Origin: an uncultured virus (IMG/VR IMGVR_UViG_3300029305_011880)
Lineage: Duplodnaviria > Heunggongvirae > Uroviricota > Caudoviricetes
Direction: 5' to 3' (one strand)
Length of the DNA: 64,000 nucleotides
IMG/VR virus record: IMGVR_UViG_3300029305_011880
Shown here: positions 35,585-40,784 of the stretch, in pieces
How the letters are laid out: every line of letters begins with the position of its first letter
How positions within the stretch are numbered: position 1 is the first letter of the stretch
Program-made: the position numbers and the translations under genes
Notes under the pieces: model-generated
Database searches by the model: none
Told to the model about the DNA's origin: nothing
The model's input: only the letters and a program-made list of their open reading frames with translations

Positions 35585-35660
35585 TGGAGCAGGTGACGGG
35601 GCTCGAACCCGCAACATCCACCTTGGCAAGGTGGCACTCTGCCAATTGAGTTACACCTGC
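35585..35660 (-). tRNA. tRNA-Gly(GCC)
   Basis: Cloverleaf. Anticodon arm CCACC-TTGCCAA-GGTGG, GTTCGAG T-loop, CCA end. Confidence 0.95.
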
Positions 35661-35662
35661 AT

Positions 35663-35887
35663 TTAATTAGCAGGAGGATAATCGATACCTATTACTTTAT
35701 TTAGTACGTCCTTTAAACTCAATGCCGCTTCGAGAGACATTACAACACTAGCCACATCATCAATTTTCTGAATAGGCTGATGATTAGCGTCCTCTCCATC
35801 GACATATTGCTGTTTAAAAGTAATAATTACTTCAGTGCTATTACTGTTTTTACTAATAGCGAAAGCATTTGTAAATTGAGGTCTCAT
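35663..35887 (-). CDS. Small hypothetical protein (DUF3467-like pattern)
   Basis: AGGAGG RBS, MRPQFTNAFAIS...VIITFKQ...VASVVMSLEAALSL. Family assignment is from recalled resemblance only. Confidence 0.6.
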   Translation of the reverse strand: MRPQFTNAFAISKNSNSTEVIITFKQQYVDGEDANHQPIQKIDDVASVVMSLEAALSLKDVLNKVIGIDYPPAN

Positions 35888-35969
35888 GTTTTTCCTCCTA
35901 GTAATTAAAATAACTTTAACCGTTTGCGCTATCCAAGACACACCGCGTGGAGGTGGTTAATTGTGTCTC

Positions 35970-36041
35970 TTGCGGGGGAAGGAATTGAACCTCCGACCTT
36001 TGGCTTATGAGGCCAATGAGCTGCCACTGCTCTACCCCGCG
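35970..36041 (-). tRNA. tRNA-Met(CAT), initiator-like, CCA not encoded
   Basis: 5' CGCGGGG with C1:A72 mismatch. Anticodon arm TTGGC-CTCATAA-GCCAA. Confidence 0.88.
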
Positions 36042-36119
36042 TGGTTGCAAAGGTTGGATTCGAACCAACGACCTCCAGGCCATGAACCTGGCGAGCTGAC
36101 CAAACTGCTCTACTCTGCG
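36042..36119 (-). tRNA. tRNA-Met(CAT), initiator-like variant
   Basis: CGCAGAG/CTTTGCA with C1:A72 mismatch. Anticodon arm CCAGG-TTCATGG-CCTGG, GTTCGAAT, CCA. Confidence 0.85.
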
Positions 36120-36136
36120 ATATATAAAATTTAAAA

Positions 36137-36213
36137 TGGAGCGAGTAACGGGACTCGAACCCGTACCGCCTGCTTGGAAGGCAGGAGTGCTAGCCATTAA
36201 ACACCATACCCGC
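36137..36213 (-). tRNA. tRNA-Gly(TCC)
   Basis: Anticodon arm CCTGC-CTTCCAA-GCAGG, GTTCGAG, CCA. Confidence 0.93.
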
Positions 36214-36219
36214 ATAAAA

Positions 36220-36326
36220 ACCCTGGGACCCGTAGGTACTTCGTCTGCAGCCGACTGTGCTTCTTACAATAATTGCAGTTAAGCAGCTACTCAAAACCGC
36301 TCAAATGTAAGCATAGCCACCAGAGT
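36220..36326 (-). ncRNA. Candidate small structured RNA between tRNAs
   Basis: Ends pair (ACUCUGG/CCAGGGU). Internal hairpins include C(UACG)G. Confidence 0.4.
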
Positions 36327-36332
36327 ATGAAC

Positions 36333-36408
36333 TGGCTCCTCGTGTAGGGCTCGAACCTACGACCCTGCGGTTAACAGCCGCATGCTCTACCAACTGAGCT
36401 AACGAGGA
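36333..36408 (-). tRNA. tRNA-Asn(GTT)
   Basis: Anticodon loop CTGTTAA, G73, CCA. Confidence 0.95.
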
Positions 36409-36414
36409 ATATAA

Positions 36415-37203
36415 AAACCCATCAGCTTAAATCACCTTTAACGACCAGGGTTATTGTGGGGGCTACCCACTGCCGTCTGCTTTCTAGCAGCAATATTCAT
36501 CTAAACTTACTGATAGCTTCACAGATGAAAGATTCACTATCACCACTCCAGAGCCCACCTCTACGTCACCGCAGGATGAGATGATTATATTCAGAGGATT
36601 GTTATGCTGTCTTTACCCTCGTGCCAGCACCATCTATTCAAATGAGTGGATGATTCACTACTGTTGTTCGCCTTTTATAATCCATTAGAACTACAAAAGG
36701 ATTCGTGCTTGCTTTAAAGTATAATTTAGAGGGCATCAAGGCTTAAACCCGCACAAATTAGATTAACGTTCTTACACGGAGCTGTACGTTCTCATCTTTA
36801 TATCACGTTTCCATGATATCGTGGATGCTCAATACCACGCAAAGAGTTTCCAGAAGTCTTCGGTTTTGGCGATTATCCTAATCGAACAACACCAAATGAG
36901 TTCCTCTGTTTGCTCGCCTTTCACTACATCGGAATTATACGTCCGACGTGGGCAACGACCCCACGTTTTAAAAGGGTTTTGCGCATAGGCAGCGCAAGCA
37001 CAAATATGTCATTCCTTGCAACCCTAAAAGTTACGACATATCCGTGTCCGACCAATTTCTTCAAAGCCCATTGGTCTCCAGCTATCATCTGTAAATCTCT
37101 GACCGCATCAACCTACAGACTATCTCACTTGTTTCACCCGCACATTCTAAAATGAATGATAATAAGGCTATCCCCCATTAGGAGTGGTAGGCAGAGTTCT
37201 CCA
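36415..37203 (-). ncRNA. Candidate large structured ncRNA (~790 nt, GOLLD/ROOL-like context)
   Basis: No credible ORF, GC-richer than flanks, dense hairpins, located between tRNA-Asp and tRNA-Asn. Confidence 0.6.
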
Positions 37204-37280
37204 TGGCGACTCGGAAGGGACTCGAACCCTCGACCTCCGCCGTGACAGGGCGGCGTTCTAACCATCTGAACTACCGAGCC
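37204..37280 (-). tRNA. tRNA-Asp(GTC)
   Basis: Anticodon arm CCGCC-CTGTCAC-GGCGG, G73, CCA. Confidence 0.95.
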
Positions 37281-37346
37281 ATATAGAAAGTTTGGAATTA
37301 CGTATTGTTTTGTGCTAATACGCCACAATCAACCAAACTATTATAT

Positions 37347-37375
37347 ATTATAACATAAATATTAATAAAAGTCTA
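37347..37375 (-). promoter_or_regulatory. Internal sigma-A-type promoter
   Basis: TAGACT-17 nt-TATAAT with TG extension, upstream of tRNA-Asp. Confidence 0.6.
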
Positions 37376-37398
37376 CTTTTTTTTGTTCGAGCAATTAA

Positions 37399-37698
37399 TT
37401 ATTTGTTTAATAATTGTTCAGACAAGGTATCCACACCTTTTATGAATTCTTTATATAATGAACATCCAGTAATCCATTCGGGACCACCATCACATCTTTG
37501 AGAACCACAAGGATATTTTCTACAAATCTTATCTAAAAAGAGCTCTCTTAATCTTTTATCTTCTGGTGTTTCTTCATCGCTTACTTCAGGAATCTCTTCC
37601 TCCCATCCGCATTCATCACAAACATATCTGTGAAAATGATATTTATAAGAAACTACTTTCCCACATTTAGGACAAATCTTTAACTGACTATCCATCAT
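37399..37698 (-). CDS. Small zinc-ribbon protein
   Basis: CPKCG...CDECG plus a second Cys cluster. AAGGAG RBS. Confidence 0.7.
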   Translation of the reverse strand: MMDSQLKICPKCGKVVSYKYHFHRYVCDECGWEEEIPEVSDEETPEDKRLRELFLDKICRKYPCGSQRCDGGPEWITGCSLYKEFIKGVDTLSEQLLNK

Positions 37699-37720
37699 AA
37701 ATCACGCTCCTTGTTTTTGT

Positions 37721-37795
37721 TGGAGCTGGTGACAAGAGTCGAACTTGCAACCTGCGGTTTACGATACCGCTGCTCTGCCATTGAGCCACACCAGC
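37721..37795 (-). tRNA. tRNA-Thr(CGT)
   Basis: Anticodon arm GCGGT-ATCGTAA-ACCGC, GTTCGAC, CCA. Confidence 0.92.
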
Positions 37796-37809
37796 AGATA
37801 AGTTTAAAT

Positions 37810-38285
37810 AAAAAGTTTTGTGAATAACCCGTAGTAACTACCCATGACGTTCTACTCTCACCAATGGTATTCTCTGTGTTACTTCAACTTTAAGCTACAC
37901 AAACTCACGAACCGACGCATTATTCAAGCCCCTTTTGTCACCAGGCATCACTTATAACCCTATATTCGTCTTCTGAATTATAAGCTATCTCACTTATCTC
38001 ACTCTCACACGGGTGTGCTTTTGAGGTATCTCCCATTTAGAACGGTTGGTAGAGGTCACCAATATATGTAGAAACAAATATGTTCAAGTTTACAATGTGT
38101 CCAGTTTTTGGCATCATGTACATTAGAACAACCAATACGAAGATTATTTGACTCGTAGTGCAGCCTACACACCCTTGTTAGAGAACTTTTAAAATAACCT
38201 TAGTGGTCGTTACTTTCACATTTCTCGACAGTCCTATTTAGAAAAGGCATAATCTAAACACTTGAACTACTGCCATCGATATTTG
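37810..38285 (-). ncRNA. Candidate large structured ncRNA (~475 nt)
   Basis: ORF-free. Long-range helices CAAAUAU/AUAUUUG and GUUCAAGU/ACUUGAAC. Contains a paralogue of the 37005-37196 module. Confidence 0.55.
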
Positions 38286-38297
38286 TTTTTACCAAAG

Positions 38298-39176
38298 TTA
38301 AATTTCTACTCCAAGAAACTGTTTAGCAAGTATCCCAACAACAAAAGATAATACTGCAACACTAACACTTATCAGCGCCATTTCAGAAAATCTGGATTTA
38401 AAATTTTCTCCTTGAGCTACAGATATATAATATGTAAATACTGCTATGATTGCTATAACAGTTAACATCATAAATACTAAAGCCAATATATATTGAGTAC
38501 TACCCAACAATAAATACGGTAATATTAATAAAATAACTGTCATTAAATAAGCAATCCCAGTATAAGAACAGGATTTTAGTGCATCTGTTCTCCCTTCGCT
38601 TTTAGCAGATAAAAATTCACTGGAAGCCATCGAAAAAGTTGCTGAAATGCCAATAATTAATCCTGCAAGCGCAATTAGCTTGGTATTTTGCATAGCAAAT
38701 GTAAACCCAGCAAGAGAACCCGTTAATTCTACAAGAGCATCATTCATCCCAAGAACCATACTCCCTATATATTGAAGTCGTTCTTCATCCAGCATATTTA
38801 ATAATGCTTCCTCGTGCTCTTCTTCCTGCTTCCTAACTCCTATGCTTTCAGGAACTTCGTCTTTTAATTGTTCATACTCTTTTTGAGCATCCATTTCTCC
38901 GTTTTCCATAAGCTTAACAGCAAATGTAAAACCAAATATACGAGCAATCCATTTGTATTTAAACACCTTTCGCTTTTCTGGTTTCATTTCTTCATTGGTA
39001 TATTTCTTCCAGATTTCATAGTGCTTAAATTCTTCGTCTGCTAAACGATTTAGAGTAGATTTATTATCTTCACCTTTTGCAAATTTAGCAATTTCACGAT
39101 ATATAACGCTTTCAGTTAATTCATTTTGTTGCATCTTTCTTATAATAGACAAACTTTTTTCGGATATATTTTTCAA
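38298..39176 (-). CDS. VIT1/CCC1-family transporter with N-terminal ferritin/rubrerythrin-like domain
   Basis: ExxH motifs (DEEFKH, EEEH), then GSMVLGMNDALVE, FSMASSEFLS and several TM helices. Confidence 0.9.
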   Translation of the reverse strand: MKNISEKSLSIIRKMQQNELTESVIYREIAKFAKGEDNKSTLNRLADEEFKHYEIWKKYTNEEMKPEKRKVFKYKWIARIFGFTFAVKLMENGEMDAQKEYEQLKDEVPESIGVRKQEEEHEEALLNMLDEERLQYIGSMVLGMNDALVELTGSLAGFTFAMQNTKLIALAGLIIGISATFSMASSEFLSAKSEGRTDALKSCSYTGIAYLMTVILLILPYLLLGSTQYILALVFMMLTVIAIIAVFTYYISVAQGENFKSRFSEMALISVSVAVLSFVVGILAKQFLGVEI

Positions 39177-39205
39177 AATATTACCTCCATAATTAATATA
39201 TATCT

Positions 39206-39234
39206 ATTATATACATTTTTTAACAAGAAGTAAA
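39206..39234 (-). promoter_or_regulatory. Internal sigma-A-type promoter for the VIT gene
   Basis: TTTACT-17 nt-TATAAT. Confidence 0.55.
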
Positions 39235-39240
39235 GACATA

Positions 39241-39314
39241 TGGAGCTGGCACCCAGAATCGAACTGGGAACTAAGACTTACAAGGTCCTTGTTTTACCTT
39301 TAAACTATGCCAGC
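39241..39314 (-). tRNA. tRNA-Thr(TGT)
   Basis: Anticodon arm AGGAC-CTTGTAA-GTCTT, GTTCGAT, CCA. Confidence 0.9.
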
Positions 39315-39402
39315 GTATAAGGAAGCTTTTCTAAGATTACCTTAGCGGTTTACCAACCGTACCCACCTGTGGTGATTAAGGGTTCCGCATTCCACAGCAG
39401 CG

Positions 39403-39478
39403 TGGCTCCTCGTGCTGGGCTCGAACCAGCGCTATACGGATTAACAGTCCGCCGTTTTACCAACTAGACTAACGAGGA
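39403..39478 (-). tRNA. tRNA-Asn(GTT)
   Basis: Anticodon arm GCGGA-CTGTTAA-TCCGT, G73, CCA. Confidence 0.9.
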
Positions 39479-39484
39479 ATATAG

Positions 39485-39561
39485 TGGTACTCCCAGCGAG
39501 GCTCGAACTCGCATTGCATCCTTGAAAGGGATGACTCCTAGGCCCGTTAGAGGATGGGAGC
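39485..39561 (-). tRNA. tRNA-Glu(TTC)
   Basis: Anticodon arm CATCC-CTTTCAA-GGATG, GTTCGAG, CCA. Confidence 0.9.
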
Positions 39562-39571
39562 ATGTTTAAAA

Positions 39572-39714
39572 TGGTAGTCCCAACGGGATTCGAACCCGTG
39601 ACTCCGCCTTTGGTGCTGAACATGAGACTTGCACTCAAATCTTTACCGCAGTAATGTTTTACTTAAACTAATCCAACGAAAGGGCGACGACTTAGACCAC
39701 TTGTCGATGGGACC
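39572..39714 (-). tRNA. tRNA-Glu(TTC) interrupted by a 67-nt insert at 36/37
   Basis: Exon 39678-39714 ends ...TCGCC-CTTTC. Exon 39572-39610 starts AA-GGCGG...GTTCGAAT...ACCA. Joined, they form a normal cloverleaf. Confidence 0.85.
39611..39677 (-). ncRNA. Anticodon-less tRNA mimic nested inside tRNA-Glu
   Basis: GTTGGAT-TA-GTTTAAGTAAAAC-A-TTACTGCGGTAA-AGAT-TTGAGTGCAAGTCTCAT-GTTCAGC-ACCA: acceptor stem, D arm, tetraloop arm, T arm, CCA. Confidence 0.75.
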
Positions 39715-39850
39715 ATTTAAAAACTTCTTTAATCCGCTTCAACCCATAAACTTTCGCTTGCCACTACTAATTTATTATTTGGGCCCATTCTTCTATAAGA
39801 ACTCTGCGATAACTTGAAGTTGTTTAGTTTGACATACAACATGTCTTCGA

Positions 39851-39926
39851 TGGCTCCTCCAGCAGGGCTCGAACCTGCGACATCGTGGTTAACAGCCACG
39901 CGCTCTACCAACTGAGCTATAGAGGA
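39851..39926 (-). tRNA. tRNA-Asn(GTT)
   Basis: Anticodon arm CGTGG-CTGTTAA-CCACG, G73, CCA. Confidence 0.95.
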
Positions 39927-39932
39927 ATATAG

Positions 39933-40103
39933 TGGTTGTGAAGGAAGGACTTAAACCTTCTTATAACTCGCTACTAAATAAAATGATTTATCTTTCACTT
40001 CAAGAAATAGTTTCTTACTTTACTCGAGTTATCCTCAGACTTATTTCTTACGTTGTCAAGGCCGTATGCTGACCCCCGACTCGATGCTTCGTCTATCTTC
40101 ACT
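39933..40103 (-). ncRNA. 171-nt tRNA-like RNA with very large variable region
   Basis: Acceptor GTGAAG/CTTCAC, T arm GAAGG-TTTAAGT-CCTTC, ACCA end, 7-nt loop AGCATAC. Confidence 0.7.
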
Positions 40104-40109
40104 ATATAG

Positions 40110-40187
40110 TGGTGACCCATGCGGGATTTGAACCCAGCAACCTTCGCCTTGAAAGGGCGACGTCTTAACCAATTCGACTAATGGGCC
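40110..40187 (-). tRNA. tRNA-Glu(TTC)
   Basis: Anticodon arm TCGCC-CTTTCAA-GGCGA, GTTCAAAT, CCA. Confidence 0.9.
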
Positions 40188-40213
40188 ATGTAAAGAAGAA
40201 ATATAAAATTTCT

Positions 40214-40289
40214 TGGCGGCTCAGACGGGTGCTGCCCCCGCTATCTCCACTGTGACAGAGTGGCGAGTCTGCTGTTTCTCTTCAGAGCC
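40214..40289 (-). tRNA. tRNA-Asp(GTC), non-canonical T- and D-loops
   Basis: Anticodon arm CCACT-CTGTCAC-AGTGG, T-loop GGCAGCA, G73, CCA. Confidence 0.8.
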
Positions 40290-40299
40290 AAATATAAAA

Positions 40300-40375
40300 T
40301 GGAGCTACTACCCAGGCTTGAACTGGGGACTTCTTGCTTACCATGCAAGTACTCTACCGACTGAGTTATAGCAGC
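40300..40375 (-). tRNA. tRNA-Thr(GGT)
   Basis: Anticodon arm CTTGC-ATGGTAA-GCAAG, GTTCAAG, CCA. Confidence 0.93.
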
Positions 40376-40378
40376 ATA

Positions 40379-40455
40379 TGGTGACCTGTATGGGACTCGA
40401 ACCCATAACCTCCACCTTGAGAGGGTGGCGACTTAACCAATTCGTCGAACAGGCC
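40379..40455 (-). tRNA. tRNA-Glu(CTC)
   Basis: Anticodon arm CCACC-CTCTCAA-GGTGG, GTTCGAG, CCA. Confidence 0.93.
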
Positions 40456-40461
40456 ATAAAC

Positions 40462-40502
40462 AAAATAAAAAGAGGACATTCAGCGTGTCGCCAAATGTCC
40501 TC
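40462..40502 (-). terminator. Attenuator terminator just upstream of the first tRNA
   Basis: GAGGACAUUUGGCG-ACA-CGCUGAAUGUCCUC followed by UUUUUAUUUU. Confidence 0.85.
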
Positions 40503-40529
40503 ATAATAATCAAATTTTATAATTTGAAT

Positions 40530-40619
40530 TTATGCATGACAAATAGATGGCGACACCATACGTGCATCTCCATTACCTTCAGTATTTTCAGTTGTATTGA
40601 TAACTACGAACTTCAACAT
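40530..40619 (-). CDS. Leader peptide MLKFVVINTTENTEGNGDARMVSPSICHA (29 aa)
   Basis: AAAGGAGG RBS 9 nt before ATG. Lies between the promoter and the terminator. Contains GTGTCGCCA, complementary to the terminator. Confidence 0.8.
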   Translation of the reverse strand: MLKFVVINTTENTEGNGDARMVSPSICHA

Positions 40620-40734
40620 TATGGTTCGCCTCCTTTTTGTAAATTTTTGATTTATATAAATATATGTATTCGATAACGATTTAAAATATTATTAAAAAGT
40701 GTTTTACACTGTCTTTTTTTCGTTCTACGATATC

Positions 40735-40763
40735 ATTATAGCATATAAATTCCAAAAAGTCAA
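40735..40763 (-). promoter_or_regulatory. Near-consensus sigma-A promoter of the tRNA operon
   Basis: TTGACT-17 nt-TATAAT with TGn extension. Confidence 0.85.
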
Positions 40764-40784
40764 CCCCTTTTTGAAAATTTTTTA

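Follow-up and report, generated by a model that had tools for sequence, protein, structure and literature searches.

A tRNA-shaped insert in the anticodon loop of a tRNA-Glu gene of a putative megaplasmid-like element: a candidate intron with a counterpart in a distant phage

How is a transfer RNA (tRNA) gene to be understood whose anticodon loop contains what looks like a second, smaller tRNA? The question is raised by a 64,000-nt stretch of DNA deposited as an uncultured virus (IMG/VR IMGVR_UViG_3300029305_011880; this whole stretch is referred to below as the window), in which a tRNA array on the minus strand includes a 143-nt gene whose structure suggests an intron-bearing tRNA-Glu(UUC). 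Group I introns, ribozymes that splice themselves and have lengths from about 200 nt upwards, occur in the anticodon loops of bacterial tRNAs, and to our knowledge the textbook account of bacterial tRNA introns comprises self-splicing group I introns only. The first-pass annotation of the window, a reading made from the sequence alone, gave as background that bacterial tRNA introns are typically large self-splicing group I introns; this is incomplete, as it omits the introns described in tRNAs of Lak megaphages by Devoto et al. 2019. Small tRNA introns of phages that depend on proteins have been documented since that year, and the observation of a tRNA-in-tRNA intron thus already has a precedent. 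The explanation preferred here, which we hold tentatively, as possible and somewhat short of probable, is that the insert is an intron excised by tRNA end-processing enzymes, the tRNA-Glu being resealed by an Rnl1-type ligase.

The split gene and its tRNA-shaped insert

The sequence of the gene was read directly from the letters of the window (minus strand, 39714-39572). The break in the tRNA-Glu body sits at C36|A37 in the anticodon loop, and the two exons of 37 and 39 nt are intact (Table 1). The first-pass annotation had placed a 67-nt insert exactly between C36 and A37, and this was confirmed both by the direct reading and by joining the exons in a script at C36|A37, which gave a molecule of 76 nt that ARAGORN called as tRNA-Glu(ttc), with a 3-bp D stem, a normal T loop (UUCGAAU) and G1.U72 as the first pair. 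In its default mode ARAGORN called 14 tRNAs in the window and none at 39572-39714; with introns allowed, it called a 15th gene at this position, with a 67-nt intron. The anticodon UCA of that call, for which the intron was placed 2 nt to the left, was rejected because the joint seen in RNA (see below) is C36|A37. Compared with the two other Glu(UUC) genes of the array, the exons are identical at 30/37 and 32/39 positions and at 28/37 and 28/39 positions, respectively, so that the split gene is a distinct gene and not a copy of either.

The first base of the insert is G1 of an acceptor stem of 7 bp and its last four bases are ACCA, both of its ends thus being the ends of a mini-tRNA. Against the Rfam tRNA model (RF00005) it scores 29.2 bits, with model positions 1-71 covered (gathering score 29; E-values of 0.0068 when 8 kb and of 0.00015 when 171 nt were searched), and its minimum-energy fold is a cloverleaf, in agreement with the earlier description of a tRNA-shaped insert with UUAC-UGCG-GUAA in place of the anticodon arm. 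The acceptor stem (GUUGGAU/GUUCAGC) is formed by seven pairs, three of them G.U. Since the fold energy is ordinary (z = -0.93; 34 of 200 shuffles fold equally well), the case for a tRNA shape rests on the model match and on the coincidence of the cloverleaf with the ends of the insert. What has been kept is a stack of the acceptor stem (7 bp) on the T stem (5 bp), the D arm and the 3' ACCA, which suggests a degenerate tRNA reduced to the features that tRNA end-processing enzymes recognise. At E-values up to 10, the region matched no ribozyme and no group I family. A self-cleaving ribozyme was rejected on this ground, as was membership in the group I introns, for which the length of 67 nt was also considered.

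By sampled words, 99% of the 8-kb stretch around the gene was found in six DNA runs from animal faeces, 52% in one more and about 25% in several further runs. Contigs (Logan) of four runs, namely the DNA runs X7, X8 and X9 and the RNA run X23, were aligned to positions 39200-40700. The insert was present in contigs from all three DNA runs, which rules out the assembly artefact that the first-pass annotation had reckoned with. X7 showed no differences over 39582-39785, X8 two over 39387-39714 and X9 four over 39401-39714. X8 and X9 are distinct lineages, in which many leader positions differ and the 136-nt spacer upstream of the split gene (39715-39850) is missing, the contigs joining 39714 to 39851. 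Two changes lie in the X9 insert (RNA-sense A23>G and A61>G), and both retain the fold: the former affects a base that is unpaired and corresponds to tRNA residue 26, the latter turns U3-A61 into U3.G61. No exon changes were listed for X9 in the contig alignment.

A homologous unit in a distant phage

One genome per GTDB species was scanned with a pattern consisting of the tRNA-Glu anticodon stem, a gap of 50-80 nt and the T arm. Three matches were obtained, one of which (L003) is real; the other two (L004 and L005) were dismissed as chance. L003 lies on a 138,782-bp phage contig binned in a metagenome-assembled genome (MAG) of Methanobrevibacter (G001 contig C1, L007-L013), where it is most likely mis-binned. 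The contig is siphovirus-like and encodes a 3020-aa tape-measure protein, NrdD, DnaB and a tRNA array. Its sole blastn match to the window is the split tRNA-Glu unit, and only three pairs of proteins match between the two elements, at 23-30% identity (GyrA, GyrB and DnaE).

The L003 unit has the same junctions as the window gene (CUUUC|G and ACCA|AAGGCGG), and the ends of its insert likewise coincide with the first base and the ACCA of a mini-tRNA. This mini-tRNA lacks an anticodon arm but has the same D arm (plus one loop base), and its T arm is perfect, the loop being UUCAAAU; the Rfam tRNA matches of both inserts end one base before the CCA, which directly abuts the 3' exon. Among the 12 pairs of the acceptor and T stems, five show two-sided changes between window and L003 and still pair, three show one-sided changes that still pair, two are unchanged and two are non-standard in one copy. 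The anticodon arm differs, being a 4-bp tetraloop hairpin in the window and absent in L003; RNase P does not need this arm. Because the stems covary and the anticodon arm does not persist, the conserved part is the top half of a tRNA plus ACCA, as read by RNase P and by 3'-end enzymes. To judge from the sequences, both copies appear to carry the features of an RNase P substrate (7 + 5 pairs with one non-standard pair each, a T loop and ACCA). The comparison supports the view that the insert behaves as a conserved intron and not as a one-off scar. A one-off decaying insertion, which the first-pass annotation had named as one of the cases that would speak against it, is not borne out, given the homologous split tRNA-Glu in a distant phage and the compensatory stem changes. 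In both elements an intact tRNA-Glu(UUC) follows the split gene within about 10-12 nt, and a relative of the phage has an intron-less tRNA-Glu with an identical anticodon arm (L150:171-246).

Within IMG/VR there were no matches to the exact junction, to the exon-gap pattern or to the junction combined with the D-arm pattern, no relatives of the neighbour protein of the window, and no matches to a 24-nt Lak motif taken from Table S6 of Devoto et al. 2019. The D-arm motif by itself matched at least 119 loci in IMG/VR, which are ordinary phage tRNAs, so that it is not specific to the insert; among these loci as listed, 98 are Gly(UCC), eight Ile(UAU), four Thr(UGU) and one a doubtful Phe, with eight uncalled. 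All 12 pattern matches in metagenomes of the Joint Genome Institute (JGI) were due to chance, none having tRNA flanks. No homologue of the split unit was found by blastn in PLSDB and INPHARED, and no paper explaining such introns was found in a literature search that covered sources other than bioRxiv supplements.

The phage contig also holds tail genes, genes for GyrA/B, an NrdD gene interrupted by one for HNH, and six homing-endonuclease genes, with GIY-YIG, HNH and LAGLIDADG types present. At 1162-1288 and 1290-1390 of the L003 array, a tRNA-Gly(UCC) with a 54-nt hairpin insert on the 5' side of the anticodon loop is adjoined by a weak tRNA-Lys-like unit (22.7 bits) lying within a 10-bp stem (AAGGCGCAUA/UAUGCGCCUU). 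Among the phage relatives in IMG/VR, L147 has a tRNA-Pro in which a rod-like insert of 49 nt is paired with the anticodon, and an amber-reading tRNA with the anticodon CUA is also present (L147 2029-2102 and 2567-2692; L145 6296-6414). A call of 'Thr with 42-nt intron' in L145 was not backed by Rfam and was set aside. These relatives further hold a unit with two T-arm-like hairpins that Rfam does not accept as a tRNA.

An RNA-level junction and the proposed removal of the insert

One contig of the metatranscriptome run X23 has 39610 joined to 39678, exactly 67 nt being skipped. The joint is the predicted CUUUC|AAGGCGG, its placement is unambiguous ('both' = 0), no differing letters are listed over 39572-39718, and the insert is without cover; the same joint is absent from the three DNA runs carrying the element (X7, X8 and X9). 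Judged from depth bins, the contig seems to span 39718-39678 plus 39610-39582, i.e., with 4 nt of 5' leader. Several points weaken it as evidence of a splice product. The joint comes from one contig with a depth of 2.3 and a shorter side of 29 nt, and at the 80% likeness setting used, joints with sides below 30 nt often stem from other organisms. X23 is an RNA run without a DNA run of the same sample; only one of its 20 aligned contigs is at least 99% alike, so that other tRNAs of the array were not recovered from it at that level. Moreover, a contig with a 4-nt leader equally fits the transcript of an intron-less allele, and intron-less alleles of Lak tRNAs do occur according to the pertinent passage of Devoto et al. 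2019 (PMC6784885). The spliced junction predicted by the first-pass annotation was thus recovered to the letter, in one RNA contig and in none of the DNA runs, at a depth and in a form that leave room for an intron-less allele; it is a weak RNA-level hint for splicing, from which we infer an origin by RNA splicing with corresponding reserve.

As the mini-tRNA fills the insert exactly, tRNA end enzymes would set both splice sites. A cut by RNase P ahead of the insert's G1 would give a 5' exon ending at C36 with a 3'-OH, and a nuclease cutting directly after CCA would free the 3' exon, which would start at A37 with a 5'-phosphate; the outer tRNA fold would keep both halves together while an ATP-dependent Rnl1-type ligase sealed the nick in the anticodon loop. 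An RNase P cut leaves an upstream 3'-OH, and the 12-bp stack and the encoded ACCA fit the known determinants of this enzyme. The 3' cut is the weakest step, because for most RNase Z enzymes CCA is described as an anti-determinant of cleavage, so that an enzyme cutting after CCA would be needed; RNase Z of Thermotoga maritima is reported in a passage of PMC3161902 to cut after an encoded CCA. We infer the cutting enzymes, the end chemistry and the sealing ligase, all of them plausible. With more doubt, the whole might amount to a protein-only route of tRNA splicing in bacteria and their large mobile elements, made from housekeeping parts, in which the mini-tRNA marks the ends for RNase P and for a CCA-respecting nuclease, an Rnl1-type ligase rejoins the exons, the X23 junction is a true splice product and the released mini-tRNA is a possible decoy.

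The phage contig encodes an Rnl1-type ligase (PF09511, 48.9 bits; T4 RNA ligase 1, 2c5u, E = 1.7e-6), whose KIDGS aligns with KEDGS of T4, and a polynucleotide-kinase-like P-loop protein matching T4 Pnk (1ltq, 1ly1) and the C. thermocellum Pnkp kinase. A metallophosphoesterase lies beside the two, all three being about 18 kb from the tRNA array. The KxDG ligase and the polynucleotide kinase would make up an Rnl1-type set. Kinase-phosphatase-ligase sets are common in phages, where they counter anticodon nucleases, and because they are so widespread the phage set shows only that the means exist. An RtcB in the bin holding the phage contig was discounted, because its contig is a different one (C63) and the gene most probably belongs to the archaeon itself; PF09414 was not found in this bin. 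A ligase of the kind that the first-pass annotation proposed to seek on the element was found, with a kinase, on the phage carrying the homologous unit, whereas among the open reading frames (ORFs) of at least 150 aa in the window there is no RNA ligase, kinase or dedicated nuclease. Its proposal of excision by maturation enzymes followed by ligation holds up in part, with the conserved insert, the matching ends, the RNA joint and the phage ligase on its side and the lack of a ligase in the window against it.

Other observations also tell against excision and resealing. The mini-tRNA of the window is a marginal one: it scores 29.2 bits, includes three G.U pairs and one U.U pair, has a T loop that reads UGCAAGU and folds with ordinary energy. 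The outer acceptor strands of L003 pair at only four of seven positions, ARAGORN makes no call there, and splicing in L003 would not yield a good tRNA. The split copy is dispensable because the array has two other tRNA-Glu(UUC) genes, and small tRNA inserts without a tRNA shape, found in the same phage and its relatives, hint at a more general removal route. It could be that the mini-tRNA or the tRNA halves are the product and the outer tRNA-Glu a scaffold that delivers and stabilises the precursor, the exons needing no rejoining; the released look-alike of 60-67 nt, anticodon-less and CCA-ended, would serve as a decoy or ligand of proteins that read the top half of tRNAs. Such a role, which we regard as unlikely, would account for an inner mini-tRNA that in L003 is better kept (38.3 bits, perfect T arm) than the outer acceptor (4/7), for the compensatory changes in its stems with ACCA in both copies, and for the intact tRNA-Glu(UUC) that directly follows in both elements, by which decoding is already covered. 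It does not account for the intact outer exons of the window, for which X9 has no changes listed, for a 5' exon identical at 35/37 positions between the elements, which is more than a scaffold needs, or for the RNA contig with joined exons, and no partner protein is known.

The broken outer acceptor stem of L003 can also be taken as the sign of a dead or dying gene, i.e., of a tRNA-derived fragment inserted or recombined into a redundant Glu copy of a fast-changing array, unspliced and functionless. The redundancy of the array and the degenerate tRNA-like remnants in its spacers agree with this, as do the sharing of the D-arm motif with ordinary phage tRNAs (at least 119 IMG/VR loci) and the lack of a homologue in the JGI metagenomes (12/12 pattern matches chance). 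Decay is nevertheless rather unlikely in our estimate, as the same insertion site occurs in two elements without other DNA similarity, five stem pairs have changed on both sides, the exons of the window show no decay and the junction is present in RNA. Lastly, and to us fairly improbable, a dedicated endonuclease encoded by the element or phage may remove the intron and leave termini with a 2',3'-cyclic phosphate and a 5'-OH to a heal-and-seal repair (kinase and phosphatase followed by Rnl1, or RtcB), in which case the tRNA shape would serve DNA-level mobility or recognition by the ligase and not RNase P. Only ends of this kind need the kinase and the phosphoesterase that lie beside the phage ligase, and the phage group does contain inserts that are not tRNA-shaped (the 54-nt hairpin of Gly(UCC) in L003 and the 49-nt rod of Pro in L147). 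In Lak introns, which are present or absent at the DNA level, a 5' hairpin and a linker precede the mini-tRNA, so that RNase P cannot set the 5' splice site (Table S6, by eye). On the other hand, no candidate endonuclease was identified, and a nuclease blind to shape would not require both splice sites to be the ends of the mini-tRNA. Kinase-phosphatase-ligase sets have, besides, their common use in phages against anticodon nucleases.

Excision by end-processing enzymes and resealing, the preferred reading, can be set beside several known systems, of which the Lak introns come nearest. Devoto et al. 2019 (PMC6784885), in the passage on Lak megaphage tRNAs, call their introns 'enigmatic'; of the tRNA-Thr intron they write that it 'itself may encode a tRNA', one having been found there by Rfam, and that its actual position differs by one from that predicted. 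Read by eye, the entries of their Table S6 (PMC6784885) show one layout for the Lak introns of Tyr, Phe, Thr and Gly, in which a hairpin is followed by an A-rich linker and then by a mini-tRNA. Like the insert of the window, these introns are short, lie in the anticodon loop, belong to a very large mobile genome and enclose a tRNA-like unit that reaches up to the 3' splice site; the corrected Thr site is 36|37, as in the window gene. They measure 79-114 nt, including (by eye) the 5' hairpin and A-rich linker, whereas the window insert starts at the first base of the mini-tRNA, and they end one or a few bases past the acceptor 3' strand without CCA, whereas the inserts of the window and of L003 end in ACCA. 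The carriers differ as well, being Lak megaphages in one case and a Bacillota-type megaplasmid-like element and a siphovirus-like phage in the other. The window intron is the simplest form so far, being nothing but a mini-tRNA, CCA-ended and on a plasmid-like element.

Group I introns share the site in the anticodon loop and the outcome of a spliced tRNA with the window insert, which differs by its 67 nt and by the lack of a group I match. The bulge-helix-bulge introns of archaeal and eukaryal tRNAs are short, excised by proteins and rejoined by a ligase, with their site at 37|38; the window insert is likewise short and in the anticodon loop, but its site is 36|37 and its carriers are bacterial-type. 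Membership was rejected by eye, because there is no 4-bp helix with 3-nt bulges and UUUC cannot pair with GCACCA. The mascRNA of MALAT1 is a tRNA-like RNA cut from a longer transcript by RNase P and RNase Z; it is eukaryotic, and its flanks are not rejoined. The likeness is one of principle, in that a tRNA-shaped module marks its own excision sites; unlike the window insert, mascRNA does not lie inside a tRNA, and membership in its family (RF01684) was rejected (16.1 bits against a threshold of 42.5, the match lying on the outer T arm). T4 repairs damage done by a host nuclease between tRNA positions 33 and 34, and its Rnl1 seals substrates of the type of an anticodon-loop nick with 3'-OH and 5'-P ends. 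Passages of PMC1920235, PMC2610378 and PMC3025547 describe how Pnkp and RNA ligase 1 of T4 reseal an anticodon loop cut by PrrC. The present case would resemble this in that an anticodon-loop nick is sealed by an Rnl1-type ligase, and the phage copy co-occurs with an Rnl1 homologue and a Pnk-like kinase; it would differ in that the break is programmed, lies at 36|37 and releases an intron, and in that no ligase is seen in the window.

An intron consisting only of a mini-tRNA gives an exact rule for both cut sites and for the end chemistry. The present data add a conjugative megaplasmid-like element to the giant phages as carriers of such inserts, and they provide comparative support in the form of compensatory changes and a first, weak hint at the RNA level. 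If the preferred reading is true, RNase P and Rnl1 gain a new role, the latter having been seen until now as a repair enzyme, and functional tRNAs of mobile elements escape tRNA gene finders when these are used in bacterial mode.

The tRNA array and the carrier element

The positions of the split gene, its parts and its surroundings are listed in Table 1.

Table 1. Features of the window and of the L003 unit, with coordinates
Feature	Coordinates	Strand	Description	Basis
5' exon of tRNA-Glu(UUC)	39714-39678	minus	37 nt, GGUCCCAUCGACAAGUGGUCUAAGUCGUCGCCCUUUC	read directly
Contents of 5' exon	39678..39714	minus	tRNA positions 1-36; acceptor 5' strand, 3-bp D stem, anticodon-stem 5' strand, CUUUC	
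Mini-tRNA insert (intron)	39677-39611	minus	67 nt	Rfam tRNA match and cloverleaf fold
Insert, acceptor 5' strand	39677-39671	minus		
Insert, D arm	39668-39656	minus	GUUU-AAGUA-AAAC	
Insert, hairpin replacing anticodon arm	39654-39643	minus	UUAC-UGCG-GUAA	
Insert, T arm	39638-39622	minus	UUGAG-UGCAAGU-CUCAU, one U.U pair	
Insert, acceptor 3' strand	39621-39615	minus		
Insert, ACCA	39614-39611	minus	discriminator A, then CCA	
3' exon	39610-39572	minus	39 nt, position 37 to encoded CCA, AAGGCGG...ACCA	
Intact tRNA-Glu(UUC)	39485..39561	minus	10 nt downstream of split gene	
tRNA array holding split gene	35585..40455	minus	14 uninterrupted tRNAs (Glu, Thr, Asn, Asp, Gly, Met), 13 with encoded CCA	ARAGORN
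Likely promoter and leader of array	40456..40768	minus	TTGACT-17-TATAAT	by eye and folding
L003 5' exon	L003:2974-3010		35/37 identical to window 5' exon	
L003 insert	L003:3011-3070		60-nt mini-tRNA	Rfam tRNA, 38.3 bits

The array is redundant, with three Glu(UUC)-type bodies, three Asn genes and four Thr genes. Its leader contains an ORF of 29 codons (40619-40530, minus; MLKFVVINTTENTEGNGDARMVSPSICHA) with a ribosome-binding site (AAAGGAGG), of which codons 8-18 specify only Asn, Thr, Glu, Gly and Asp, all served by tRNAs of the array. A 14-bp hairpin with a U run (40502-40462, minus) stands just before the first tRNA, and the hairpin contains the complement (UGGCGACAC, 40493-40485) of GUGUCGCCA in the leader ORF (40556-40548). 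The layout of the region resembles that of an attenuator with a leader peptide in front of a tRNA operon. In the strain of run X9 the leader ORF has one change (Ala19 to Thr) and the hairpin region many.

Two units in the array received no call from ARAGORN or Rfam. At 39930-40101 (minus), a unit of about 172 nt follows the usual CTATAT spacer, with a GUGAAG/CUUCAC pairing, a T arm (GAAGG-UUUAAGU-CCUUC) and an ACCA end, about 110 nt including an 8-bp hairpin standing in place of the anticodon and variable arms. At 40214-40289 (minus) there is a degenerate tRNA-like piece with the arm CCACU-CUGUCAC-AGUGG (Asp GUC-like) and a GCCA end. Two tRNA-Met genes (35970-36119) abut without a spacer (36041/36042), so that an RNase P cut of the downstream gene would also make the CCA end of the upstream one.

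The window further encodes DnaE, DnaK, GyrA/B, two coupling proteins of a type IV secretion system (T4SS), Tad-pilus genes and a ParM-like protein, and one of the coupling proteins is 56-63% identical to those of Bacillales plasmids of 400-720 kb. These genes point to a conjugative, large, low-GC megaplasmid-like element of Bacillota type from bacteria of the animal gut. An ARAGORN call of 'Ile with 83-nt intron' on giant Bacillales plasmids related by their coupling proteins looked spurious and was rejected. These plasmids (Bt407 BTB_502p and a Brevibacillus plasmid) themselves carry tRNA arrays, with 35 and 8 Rfam matches, at 97.9-106.4 kb of NC_018878.1 and 156.5-157.8 kb of CP139434.1, some members of which are over-long at 97-109 nt.

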